DNA of 64,000 nucleotides from NCBI RefSeq assembly GCF_003334785.1, contig NZ_QOWV01000001.1; one strand, 5' to 3'. A program made the position numbers and the translations under genes. This document shows, piece after piece, positions 4,550 through 6,210 of the stretch; the first letter of the stretch is position 1, and the number at the start of each line of letters is the position of its first letter. Source of the DNA: Escherichia coli. Lineage in GTDB: Bacteria; Pseudomonadota; Gammaproteobacteria; Enterobacterales; Enterobacteriaceae. A model generated the notes under the pieces. That model saw only the letters and a list, made by a program, of their open reading frames with translations, was not told the DNA's origin and made no database searches.

Positions 4550-4582
4550 AAAAAGGCCGCAGGCTGTTACCCCTGCGGCCGG
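4550..4582 (-). terminator. rho-independent terminator of ldrA (GC hairpin ggccgcagg...cctgcggcc then U-tract on minus strand)
   Basis: inverted repeat GGCCGCAGGctgttacCCCTGCGGCC preceded on plus strand by AAAAA. Confidence 0.7.
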
Positions 4583-4629
4583 TTTCGGGCGCATATTGCC
4601 ATCACGGCAGCCTGACGCCCGTTTTCACC

Positions 4630-4737
4630 TTACTTCCGGTTACGCCACCAGCTGACAATCGCTGCGGTAATAATTCCCGCCAGGATCGGTGCTGCCAGGT
4701 CGTGCCAGAAAATCATGGCAAACTGCGCGAGCGTCAT
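4630..4737 (-). CDS. ldrA: type I toxin-antitoxin toxin peptide LdrA (35 aa)
   Basis: reverse complement translates to MTLAQFAMIFWHDLAAPILAGIITAAIVSWWRNRK*; hand-translated from the sequence. Confidence 0.9.
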   Translation of the reverse strand: MTLAQFAMIFWHDLAAPILAGIITAAIVSWWRNRK

Positions 4738-4784
4738 ATAGCCGCCTTGTTGTAATGACAACATTTTGCGGCTATTCTTGAAGT

Positions 4785-4851
4785 GTCTGGTTTCAAGATT
4801 AGCCCCCGTTCTGTTGTCAGGTTTTACCTCTCAACGTGCGGGGGTTTTCTC
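4785..4851 (+). ncRNA. rdlA: Rdl antisense RNA (antitoxin) against the ldrA leader
   Basis: position relative to ldrA as recalled for Rdl RNAs; 3' end coincides with a hairpin (cccccg...cggggg) plus T-tract at 4801-4851; exact 5' end is from memory, not derived. Confidence 0.55.
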
Positions 4852-5084
4852 TTTCCAGCAACCAATGCCACCAGGGATAAAGCCCCCGCAACATTGCGCC
4901 TCACCGGATAACGCCGGCTTGGTGTGGATACTACGACTCAATTCATCTTCACTTCATCCCTGAAATGTTTGCAATGAAGAGTGCATTCCGGTTTTTCAAC
5001 AGCTGTTACAGTCATTTCATGAGTGCTCTGGATGAGGCTTCCAGCTCGGGTTGCCAATATTTACTTGTGGAAGTGATAAAGACA

Positions 5085-5117
5085 AAAATGGCCGCAGGCT
5101 GTTACCCCTGCGGCCGG
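5085..5117 (-). terminator. rho-independent terminator of ldrB
   Basis: same hairpin plus U-tract as at 4550-4582, one repeat period downstream. Confidence 0.7.
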
Positions 5118-5164
5118 TTTCGGGCGCATATTGCCATCACGGCAGCCTGACGCCCGTTTTCACC

Positions 5165-5272
5165 TTACTTCCGGTTACGCCACCAGCTGACAATCGCTGC
5201 GGTAATAATTCCCGCCAGGATCGGTGCTGCCAGGTCGTGCCAGAAAATCATGGCAAACTGCGCGAGCGTCAT
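5165..5272 (-). CDS. ldrB: type I toxin peptide LdrB (35 aa)
   Basis: same 108-nt reading frame as ldrA, one repeat period (535 bp) downstream. Confidence 0.9.
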   Translation of the reverse strand: MTLAQFAMIFWHDLAAPILAGIITAAIVSWWRNRK

Positions 5273-5319
5273 ATAGCCGCCTTGTTGTAATGACAACATT
5301 TTGCGGCTATTCTTGAAGT

Positions 5320-5386
5320 GTCTGGTTTCAAGATTAGCCCCCGTTCTGTTGTCAGGTTTTACCTCTCAACGTGCGGGGGTTTTCTC
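5320..5386 (+). ncRNA. rdlB: Rdl antisense RNA
   Basis: periodic copy of the rdlA region including the terminator hairpin and T-tract. Confidence 0.55.
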
Positions 5387-5619
5387 TTTCCAGCAACCAA
5401 TGCCACCAGGGATAAAGCCCCCGCAACATTGCGCCTCACCGGATAATTCCGGCTTGGTGTGGATACTACGTCTCAATTCATCTTCACTTCATCCCTGAAA
5501 TGTTTGCAATAAAGAGTACATTCCGGCTTTTCAACAGCTGTTGCAGTCGTTTCATGAGTGCTCTGGATGATGCTTCCAGCTCGGGTTGCCAATATTTACT
5601 TGTGGAAGAGATAAAGACA

Positions 5620-5652
5620 AAAATGGCCGCAGGCTGTTACCCCTGCGGCCGG
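5620..5652 (-). terminator. rho-independent terminator of ldrC
   Basis: same hairpin plus U-tract. Confidence 0.7.
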
Positions 5653-5699
5653 TTTCGGGCGCATATTGCCATCACGGCAGCCTGACGCCCGTTTTCACC

Positions 5700-5807
5700 T
5701 TACTTCCGGTTACGCCACCAGCTGACAATCGCTGCGGTAATAATTCCCGCCAGGATCGGTGCTGCCAGGTCGTGCCAGAAAATCATGGCAAACTGCGCGA
5801 GCGTCAT
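5700..5807 (-). CDS. ldrC: type I toxin peptide LdrC (35 aa)
   Basis: third copy of the 108-nt Ldr reading frame. Confidence 0.9.
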   Translation of the reverse strand: MTLAQFAMIFWHDLAAPILAGIITAAIVSWWRNRK

Positions 5808-5854
5808 ATAGCCGCCTTGTTGTAATGACAACATTTTGCGGCTATTCTTGAAGT

Positions 5855-5921
5855 GTCTGGTTTCAAGATTAGCCCCCGTTCTGTTGTCAGGTTTTACCTC
5901 TCAACGTGCGGGGGTTTTCTC
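5855..5921 (+). ncRNA. rdlC: Rdl antisense RNA
   Basis: periodic copy of the rdlA region. Confidence 0.5.
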
Positions 5922-6210
5922 TTTCCAGCAACCAATGCCACCAGGGATAAAGCCCCGCAACATTGCGCCTCACCGGATAACGCCGGCTTGGTGTGGATAC
6001 TACGTCGCAATTCATCTTCACTTCATCCCTGAAATGTTTGCAATGAAGAGTACATTCCGGCTTTTCAACAGCTGTTGCAGTGGTTTCGTGCAGGGTGTGG
6101 TACAGGCTCGCAATTCTGATTAACGACCTGTCCAGGTAGTATGAAGAAATACAATAAGCAGGAATTTATATTATCTCCCCCGATTACCGTCATCGGAGGA
6201 GATATAACTG

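Follow-up and report, generated by a model that had tools for sequence, protein, structure and literature searches.

This stretch of DNA raises the question of what three nearly identical direct repeats between kdsA and chaA represent, and why they resemble each other more closely than do the corresponding units of the reference K-12 genome. In MG1655, four LDR repeats are described, three of them in tandem, each made up of a 35-aa Ldr and an Rdl RNA of ~60 nt (PMC4147584), and the tandem LDR-A/B/C copies lie between kdsA and chaA according to Kawano et al. (2002) as relayed in PMC4147584. The array found in the window (the whole analysed stretch of 64,000 nucleotides) occupies the same intergenic region. 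The region as a whole is best explained, with a probability of roughly 0.93 in our estimate, as LDR-A/B/C on the chromosome of a K-12-like E. coli, with three tandem type I toxin-antitoxin modules. Being the published array, it is already known and ordinary, and its value as a discovery is small, as a textbook chromosomal type I array.

Organization of the array

According to the repeat search, the initial 300 nt are 100% identical in all three copies, and an exact repeat of that length in triplicate cannot have arisen by chance. Tandem Repeats Finder reported no repeat in the array because the 535-bp period exceeds the longest period allowed (500). In the three-unit alignment (A1), units 1 and 2 differ by 11 substitutions and no indels across 535 nt, units 1 and 3 by 6 substitutions and a single 1-bp deletion, and units 2 and 3 by 4 substitutions and the same deletion. 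The latter shortens a run of five C to four at 5953-5956, downstream of which the unit spacing of 535/535 becomes 535/534. The few substitutions and the one 1-bp indel in the third unit had been correctly foreseen in the original prediction, while its description of three 535-bp units applies to units 1 and 2 and fails for the truncated third.

Pfam Ldr_toxin, Rfam rdlD and the kdsA/chaA flanks all agree with the predicted identity of a triplicated Ldr/Rdl module. MG1655 LDR-A/B/C has the same locus, three-unit array, 535-bp period, LdrA/LdrC protein and 1-bp deletion in unit C, and the array region of the window is 99.6% identical to it over 2.1 kb (99.6-100% to K-12 genomes).

Table 1. Positions of the array, its flanking genes and its component features in the window
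Feature	Position	Strand	Basis or remark
LDR array	4547..6085 (end approximate)	.	repeat search and three-unit alignment A1
Unit 1	4547-5081		start from repeat search; full 535 bp
Unit 2	5082-5616		start from repeat search; full 535 bp
Unit 3	5617-~6085		start from repeat search; truncated, ~469 bp; similarity to other units stops at ~6085
kdsA, left flank	3627..4481	+	NCBIfam NF009109, 517 bits
chaA, right flank	6211..7311	-	NCBIfam NF007895, 774 bits; RefSeq CDS 1101 nt
ldr toxin ORF, unit 1 (LdrA equivalent)	4630..4737	-	35 aa + stop; PF13940; WP_000170955.1; PDB 5LBJ
ldr toxin ORF, unit 2 (ldrB position, LdrA/C sequence)	5165..5272	-	ORF list; RefSeq
ldr toxin ORF, unit 3 (LdrC equivalent)	5700..5807	-	ORF list; RefSeq
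ldr intrinsic terminator, unit 1	4548..4580	-	terminator scan; stem 4555-4580 + T run
ldr terminators, units 2 and 3	5083-5115, 5618-5650	-	terminator scan
Conserved 3' UTR element	4588..4621	-	predicted pairing with ldr ribosome-binding region (4728-4764) and 5' GGCGC (4896-4900)
rdl antisense RNA gene, unit 1	4785..4850	+	66 nt; Rfam RF01813, 91.4 bits
rdl antisense RNA genes, units 2 and 3	5320..5385, 5855..5920	+	Rfam RF01813
Leader ORF candidate (i), 25 codons	4817..4894	-	SD GGUGAGG + ATG; MLRGLYPWWHWLLERENPRTLRGKT
Candidate (i) equivalent, unit 2	5352-5429	-	
Candidate (i) equivalent, unit 3	5901-5963	-	frameshifted to 20 codons by 1-bp deletion
Leader ORF candidate (ii), 20 codons	4734..4796	-	TTG start; best fit to published 'ldrX'
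Candidate (ii) equivalents, units 2 and 3	5269-5331, 5804-5866	-	
Putative ldr -10 box TAGTAT	4928..4933	-	alignments A2 and A3
Putative ldr -10 equivalents, units 2 and 3	5463-5468, 5997-6002	-	
Putative rdl promoter TTGTAA-17 nt-TATTCT	4750..4778	+	read from sequence
Putative rdl promoter equivalents, units 2 and 3	5285-5313, 5820-5848	+	

Ldr toxins

Ldr is a single-pass alpha-helical inner-membrane peptide of the Fst/Ldr superfamily, and over-production of LdrD leads to nucleoid condensation. The three 108-nt minus-strand ORFs are identical within the window, as predicted, and their product, MTLAQFAMIFWHDLAAPILAGIITAAIVSWWRNRK, is that of K-12 LdrA/LdrC and of RefSeq WP_000170955.1 ('type I toxin-antitoxin system toxin Ldr family protein'), whereas LdrB of the K-12 reference differs (WP_000170963.1). 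The peptide matches Pfam PF13940 (Ldr_toxin) over residues 1-35 of 35 (E 1.8e-24) and LdrD of PDB 5LBJ (E 1.5e-10), while a search of the 35-aa sequence against NCBIfam gave no match. In the ORF list the same genes appear as 44-aa frames, with an in-frame ATG further upstream.

Members of the superfamily are defined by a transmembrane helix with P/D/S/T-XXX-G and by a conserved Trp that separates this helix from the charged C-terminus (PMC7472228), and both can be read from the sequence here, as P17-ILA-G21 and as W30 W31 followed by RNRK. Fst of the Gram-positive branch (RNAI-RNAII, par of pAD1) has the corresponding PXXXG helix, here PILAG, and the Trp before the basic C-terminus, here WWRNRK; its regulation, through convergent transcripts that interact at 5' direct repeats and share a terminator, differs from the divergent overlap of ldr and rdl (PMC7472228). 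Over-production of LdrA causes ATP to drop within 2 min and growth to arrest (PMC8309996), and the peptide is located in the membrane (PMC8309996; PMC7472228).

Downstream of each ldr ORF lie a GC-rich hairpin of 9 bp and a T run (4555-4580, 5090-5115, 5625-5650), so the proposed GC-hairpin terminator of its own was found by the terminator scan in all three units; the scan as a whole returned 9 terminator-like sites against 2.7 expected. An alignment of 46 Ldr-locus sequences from five genera, Escherichia, Citrobacter, Kluyvera, Pseudocitrobacter and Salmonella (A3), shows the terminator to be conserved, with compensatory changes (columns 375-404). The pattern FWHDLAAP...G...W..R.RK is kept in 45/45 Ldr homologues.

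Rdl antisense RNAs

The plus-strand hairpin with a T-tract had been interpreted as Rdl, and a full-length match to Rfam RF01813 (rdlD) in every unit (91.4 bits; gathering score 50) speaks for this; 11 loci of other genera score 52-91 bits. The RNA has a 5' tail of 16 nt before a long stem-loop and a U-tract, and its fold (-27.1 kcal/mol) has a z of -4.75. Its assignment as an antisense RNA stands. It lies not opposite the ldr ORF but opposite the 5' leader, to the middle of which it is perfectly complementary, 48 nt ahead of the ldr ATG. This agrees with the published description, in which Rdl overlaps the 5' UTR of ldr but does not reach the ribosome-binding site (PMC4147584). Experimentally, RdlD counteracts the toxicity of LdrD post-transcriptionally, as reported by Kawano (2002) and relayed in PMC4147584, and RNase III-cut double-stranded RNA of ~21 nt from the rdlD/ldrD overlap has been captured in vivo with p19 (PMC7373196).

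The experimentally studied K-12 module LDR-D (ldrD/rdlD, adjoining bcsG; PDB 5LBJ) has the same architecture as the units of the window. Its leader block (SD-ATG...CCCCCGCACGTTG), 3' UTR element and terminator are nearly identical to those described here, and its antisense RNA scores 87 bits with Rfam rdlD. In contrast, it is present in a single copy at another locus, its Rdl loop and 5' tail differ, and the LdrD peptide is ~57% identical to the Ldr of the window (PMC8309996).

It could also be proposed that the units are decaying relics without toxin-antitoxin activity, in which ORFs and hairpins persist from a recent duplication. No deletion phenotype is known for chromosomal Fst/Ldr loci (PMC7472228), the leader of unit 3 carries the 1-bp deletion, and the locus of Pseudocitrobacter vendiensis has a stop codon inside Ldr. 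However, the identical peptide LdrA has been found toxic and membrane-located in experiments (PMC8309996, PMC7472228), all five genera of A3 conserve the 35-codon ORF together with Rdl, the leader and the 3' UTR, the variable columns of the toxin ORF are distributed by codon position as 24/17/30, i.e. as coding-type variation, and at least one copy is present in 5,423 of 5,426 complete E. coli genomes, which together make decay very improbable. Even less credible, and practically dismissible, is the idea that the plus-strand ORFs of 61-95 aa across the repeats are real protein genes. The mechanical ORF list does give them as open frames, but they have no NCBIfam match, are unannotated in every RefSeq genome inspected, lie antisense to the conserved ORF of ldr and cross both terminator hairpins, and change in length (61, 65, 79, 87 and 95 aa) with the 1-bp deletion and the array edge; the absence of a family and of annotation is in keeping with their earlier dismissal as repeat artefacts.

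Predicted transcripts and candidate leader ORFs

A scan for the sigma-70 consensus found no ldr or rdl promoter at threshold, and the promoter assignments rest on conservation. Homology of the 46 Ldr loci starts exactly at a TAGNAT box in which TA..AT is invariant, implying an ldr mRNA of ~370 nt on the minus strand, from ~4921 to ~4550, that would consist of a leader of ~185 nt, the 35-codon ORF, the conserved 3' UTR and the intrinsic terminator. Rdl would be a 66-nt plus-strand transcript started inside the ldr leader region, and the putative rdl promoter stops 6 nt before its 5' end and shares sequence with the ldr ribosome-binding region of the opposite strand. This promoter agrees with the consensus at 8/12 positions, below the scan threshold, and its TTGYAA and TATYCT are conserved in A3.

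Translation of ldr has been hypothesised to depend on an upstream ORF, 'ldrX' (stated in PMC4147584 and described also in PMC8167048), and the leader offers two candidates. The ATG-initiated ORF (i) is ~100% conserved in sequence with LDR-D, without excess variation at third codon positions, and its 25-aa product has no family in NCBIfam. As ldrX it was rejected: 80 nt separate its end from the ldr ATG, 3/46 homologues have ACG or GCG in place of its start codon, its frame is shifted in unit 3, and its variable columns are spread over codon positions as 8/8/6. The UUG-initiated ORF (ii) is the better fit, since ldrX in the review overlaps the toxin translation initiation region (PMC8167048). 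Its UUG, at -59 from ldr, is preceded by GGGGG and lies inside the Rdl target, and in the units of the window its UGA stop and the ldr AUG share bases (AUGA), whereas in LDR-D a 1-nt insertion places the upstream UUG in frame with ldrD, without the AUGA overlap. A 20-codon open frame is not unlikely by chance. An upstream start codon reading in frame into ldr is found in 41/46 homologues, about half of which use UUG at ~-60, and the frame relation varies across the set (8 have the AUGA overlap and 41 an in-frame fusion).

A predicted closed fold of the ldr mRNA

The full ldr mRNA folds with a z of -6.07, and in the minimum free energy structure 4728-4764 pairs with 4593-4621, and 4896-4900 with 4588-4592. 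RNAalifold recovered the same long-range helices from the 46 sequences, where 98.2% of the alignment cells pair, compared to 30-61% with the partner slid. Seven cells at three pairs have changes on both sides, a number reached in 1/500 shuffles; the count of pairs with a change on both sides and that of further pair types did not exceed the shuffles (64/500 and 276/500, respectively). Variation in these helices is mostly one-sided and wobble-compatible. The alignment thus gives modest support to a predicted pairing between the ldr ribosome-binding region and the 3' UTR element, as in hok mRNA, modest because of the mostly one-sided changes and the two measures not above shuffles.

With regard to the mechanism by which Rdl represses Ldr, published accounts state 'mechanism currently unknown' (PMC8309996) and 'further work is needed' (PMC4147584). 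According to the model suggested by the predicted fold, in the full-length mRNA the 3' UTR element would sequester the ldr Shine-Dalgarno and AUG, and pairing between the two mRNA ends would give a hok-like closed structure. Translation of ldr would then need ribosome entry upstream, at the leader ORF GGGGG-N6-UUG (4806-4794) inside the Rdl target. Pairing with Rdl would cover this entry site, and the Rdl-ldr duplex could be a substrate for RNase III; as long as Rdl is being made, no toxin would be made. If such a hok-like lock holds, the conserved ATG leader ORF would be kept as RNA and not as a peptide.

The comparison with hok/sok (with mok; plasmid R1 and chromosomal homologues) rests on a long leader, an antisense RNA opposite the leader and not opposite the toxin ribosome-binding site, and an upstream ORF coupling translation, as proposed for ldr too, and fold-back inhibition of hok mRNA (PMC8167048) resembles the predicted 5'-3' closure and sequestered initiation region of ldr. 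A weak match to Rfam sok (RF01794), of 27-43.5 bits, recurs on the ldr leader in 8/11 loci including the window (25.7-29.3 bits in the window, at most 43.5 in homologues). Membership in hok/sok was rejected, as these scores are everywhere below the gathering score of 59 and the toxin is Ldr (PF13940), not Hok.

Homogenization of the units

Between 3800 and 6900, the window differs from MG1655 LDR-A/B/C at ten bases, every one homogenising the units. All of them fall inside the most similar 336 nt, and each time the allele of a single copy is replaced by the allele of the other two, so that the three units are identical over their first 336 nt. The LdrB variant is lost, the middle copy encoding the LdrA/C peptide instead; in unit 1, six rdlA-specific bases are lost (Rdl nt 3-7 in the 5' tail, nt 40 in the apical loop, and position -2), and in unit 3 one rdlC-specific base. 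The homogenisation reflects either gene conversion or an assembly artefact. If conversion erased the rdlA-specific recognition bases, the three antitoxins would be interchangeable in the source strain.

An assembly or polishing artefact, in which multi-mapped reads erased MG1655-like variants of what would still be an ldr/rdl locus, seems to us rather unlikely, though it has several points in its favour. The restriction of 10/10 differences to the most similar 336 nt, with the majority allele each time, is what it would leave, copy-specific bases survive in the more divergent spacer parts, a J53 derivative is the closest public genome but the J53 reference itself shows no difference from MG1655 at the locus, and a second tandem repeat, rtT (22427-22514), likewise differs from MG1655. 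On the other hand, 16 single-base differences from MG1655 are scattered in unique sequence without obvious error context and point to a somewhat diverged lineage; in a check for nanopore errors, no pattern was found in the Dam/Dcm motif context of these scattered differences. The rtT change is one contiguous tract from one neighbour, as conversion predicts. Other assemblies show differing partial states, which majority-rule polishing does not predict: the ldrB tract alone is converted in a mouse-gut K-12 assembly, all units are converted to the minority C-type in TOP10, and the 1-bp deletion is repaired in 184/2aE.

Two readings, that Rdl acts through a hok-like structural lock and that conversion among the three modules is fast enough to show up between K-12 laboratory lineages, are put forward tentatively, at slightly under even odds in our estimate. 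Parts of the lock were probably proposed earlier by Gerdes & Wagner (2007) and Kawano (2012). The 46-locus alignment offers ready base pairs and start codons for testing the repression of Ldr by Rdl. Altogether, 19/33 differences between the window and MG1655 lie in the LDR and rtT arrays, together ~2 kb of tandem repeat; tandem loci either evolve in concert or get mis-assembled, and caution is advisable in their annotation and variant calling.

Copy number among strains

The tandem copies probably arise and stay alike via unequal crossing-over and gene conversion, which would also lead to copy number differences between strains. The predicted variation in copy number was indeed found when copies at the exact kdsA-chaA site were compared: Nissle 1917 has one, O157:H7 two and K-12 three, and among 59 genomes three copies occur in 26, two in 18 and one in 15. 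The term 'accessory island' is nevertheless overstated, with only 3/5,426 complete E. coli genomes lacking a copy. In RefSeq K-12 genomes, three Ldr toxins are annotated at the locus.

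Identity and organisation of the LDR array

The three ldr/rdl repeats correspond to the LDR-A, LDR-B and LDR-C array of E. coli K-12, since the match to K-12 genomes, their annotation and the published description all agree. The 2.1-kb interval was found by Megablast in all 5,426 complete E. coli genomes, K-12 genomes being 99.6-100% identical to the window, and in K-12 annotation kdsA is followed by three "type I toxin-antitoxin system toxin Ldr family protein" genes and then chaA. The whole 64-kb window is colinear with MG1655 (31 mismatches, 2 gaps), which has four LDR repeats, three of them in tandem, each comprising a 35-aa Ldr and a ~60-nt antisense Rdl overlapping the 5′ UTR, not the RBS (PMC4147584). 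The array is thus already known; together with Pfam and Rfam matches, these data confirm the observation and support its original interpretation as an Ldr/Rdl type I toxin-antitoxin locus.

Repeat search returned three direct repeats, whose starts are 4547, 5082 and 5617 and which share their first 300 nt with 100% identity. In the unit alignment, a check named beforehand, units 1 and 2 differ by 11 substitutions, units 1 and 3 by 6, and units 2 and 3 by 4, with a single 1-bp deletion in unit 3 (C5 to C4 at 5953-5956). The units are therefore near-identical as expected, and of the three predicted 535-bp lengths that of unit 3 does not hold, as its likeness to the others ends at ~6085, truncating it at ~469 bp. 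Tandem Repeats Finder reported no repeat at the array solely because its period limit is 500.

Positions of the features and differences discussed
Feature	Position	Strand	Remarks
kdsA	3627-4481	+	left flank; NCBIfam NF009109, 517 bits
ldr ORF, unit 1	4630-4737	-	35 codons, identical in all units
ldr ORF, unit 2	5165-5272	-	35 codons, identical in all units
ldr ORF, unit 3	5700-5807	-	35 codons, identical in all units
rdl, unit 1	4785-4850	+	full-length Rfam rdlD RF01813, 91.4 bits (gathering score 50)
rdl, unit 2	5320-5385	+	as unit 1
rdl, unit 3	5855-5920	+	as unit 1
chaA	6211-7311	-	right flank; NF007895, 774 bits
Homogenising differences	4783-4824, 5188-5247, 5881		comparison with MG1655
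Scattered single-base differences, 1-8	7485, 7961, 10418, 21920, 23131, 34926, 36255, 36262
Scattered single-base differences, 9-16	36453, 39466, 39705, 40999, 46917, 54977, 56970, 59560

With the ORF-to-Rdl core as query, at least one copy was found in 5,423 of the 5,426 complete E. coli genomes, at 12,000 places in total (~2.2 per genome). Among a spread of 59 genomes, 26 hold three copies, 18 two and 15 one, while the kdsA-chaA site carries one in Nissle 1917, two in O157:H7 and three in K-12, in agreement with the predicted variation among strains. Independent tandem arrays of 2-3 units with 465-540 bp spacing are also present in Kluyvera sichuanensis, K. cryocrescens, K. ascorbata, Escherichia whittamii, Escherichia sp. 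E1V33, an E. coli whose units are D-type, and others (loci L045, at 6575-8020, L028, L046, L044, L022 and L009). Amplification in tandem is therefore a trait of the family, not a peculiarity of K-12.

Toxin and antitoxin genes

Pfam Ldr_toxin matches the Ldr peptide over its full length (E 1.8e-24), as does LdrD, whose structure has been solved (5LBJ). The peptide also bears the Fst/Ldr signature (criteria in PMC7472228), with PILAG inside the helix and RNRK after WW. The identical 108-nt ORFs, each with its own terminator (a 9-bp GC hairpin and T run), and the plus-strand rdl elements were all recovered as proposed. Each rdl match sits 48 nt upstream of its ldr ATG, and the predicted Rdl fold consists of a 16-nt tail, a long stem-loop and a U-tract (-27.1 kcal/mol, z -4.75). 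Neither a family match nor annotation exists for the 61-95 aa ORFs of the plus strand, regarded as artefacts. LdrD is toxic and is counteracted by RdlD (PMC4147584); LdrA, identical in peptide to that of the window, is located in the membrane, and ATP falls within 2 min (PMC8309996). From the overlap of ldrD and rdlD, a duplex cut by RNase III has been captured in vivo (PMC7373196).

Predicted structure of the ldr mRNA and candidate leader ORFs

A single pattern scan gathered 45 genuine Ldr units from Escherichia, Citrobacter, Kluyvera, Pseudocitrobacter and Salmonella, which were aligned in mRNA sense (alignment A3, 46 sequences). Their homology begins exactly at an invariant TAGNAT (4933-4928), read as a putative ldr -10 box, which would give an mRNA of ~370 nt. 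In its minimum free energy fold (z -6.07), the translation initiation region (4764-4728) is predicted to pair with a 3′ UTR element (4621-4593) through a box upstream of the SD, the GGCGG of the SD, and the AUG with two codons, while GGCGC (4900-4896) pairs with GCGCC (4592-4588). RNAalifold returned the same helices, in which 98.2% of alignment cells pair, compared with 30-61% when the partner is slid. Changes on both sides affect three pairs (7 cells), a count reached by 1 of 500 shuffles; as variation is mostly one-sided, covariation backing is supportive but modest. A putative rdl -35 box, TTGTAA (4750-4755, plus strand), overlaps the upstream box (4752-4764) that pairs with the 3′ UTR, so that three constraints apparently meet on one segment.

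According to a published idea, the leader ORF ldrX overlaps the toxin initiation region and Rdl blocks its translation (PMC4147584, PMC8167048). In the window, a UUG at 4796, preceded by GGGGG and lying within the Rdl target, begins a frame of 20 codons, and the UGA that ends it shares bases with the ldr AUG (AUGA). The arrangement differs in 41 of 46 homologues, where an upstream start codon runs in frame into ldr, in about half of them a UUG at ~-60. In the model that we infer as most likely, the ldr mRNA would be closed, a leader ORF would be the sole entry point for ribosomes, and Rdl would mask this site and set off RNase III cleavage.

The 25 codons of another leader ORF, which starts with the ATG at 4894, are conserved in LDR-D at almost 100%. 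This ORF looks conserved as RNA rather than peptide, because its variable columns are spread 8/8/6 over codon positions, three homologues have ACG or GCG in place of its start codon, and the substitutions strengthen a stem (U-G to C-G). The unit 3 deletion, shared with MG1655, lies in a minus-strand G-run at codons 3-4 of this ORF; the frameshift cuts it to 20 codons, and the GCGGGGG/CCCCCGC stem becomes one base shorter.

The ldr leader also gave sub-threshold matches to Rfam sok RF01794 (25.7-43.5 bits, gathering score 59) on the minus strand at 4735-4887, 5270-5422 and 5805-5956, recurring in homologous loci L011, L036, L017, L038, L040, L049 and L027. They include a hairpin flanked by GGCUA/UAGCC, which hints at related or convergent ldr and hok leaders. 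In L036 of Pseudocitrobacter vendiensis (1243-1660), a stop replaces W at codon 30 of Ldr, but the Rdl match still reaches 85 bits; the toxin of this module may be dead and its antitoxin retained.

Homogenisation of the units

All 10 differences from MG1655 in 3800-6900 fall within the opening 336 nt of the units, and each replaces a copy-specific base with that of the other two copies; the LdrB variant of the middle copy is therefore gone. Unit 1 lacks the bases specific to rdlA. They belong to two segments of Rdl, its 5′ tail (nt 3-7) and its apical loop (nt 40), and both segments are hypervariable among genera in A3. One rdlC-specific base is lost as well (5881).

Such homogenisation could have arisen by gene conversion or as an assembly or polishing artefact. 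Of the 33 differences that separate the window from MG1655, 19 belong to tandem repeats, namely the LDR array and rtT (22427-22514). Among other K-12-like assemblies, the J53 reference is the same as MG1655, conversion in a mouse-gut K-12 is confined to the ldrB tract, TOP10 carries C-type sequence throughout its three units, and strain 184/2aE equals the window except that the 1-bp deletion is absent. The pattern as a whole fits recurrent gene conversion.

In the 178-bp rtT/tyrT repeat, nine differences make the middle copy identical to that 178 bp upstream, apparently through one conversion tract with the adjacent unit as donor. The nearest public genomes to the window are J53-p1-pV-hybrid-1 and 184/2aE, a human isolate. 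Sixteen single-base differences from MG1655 are scattered over unique sequence, above expectation between K-12 laboratory strains.
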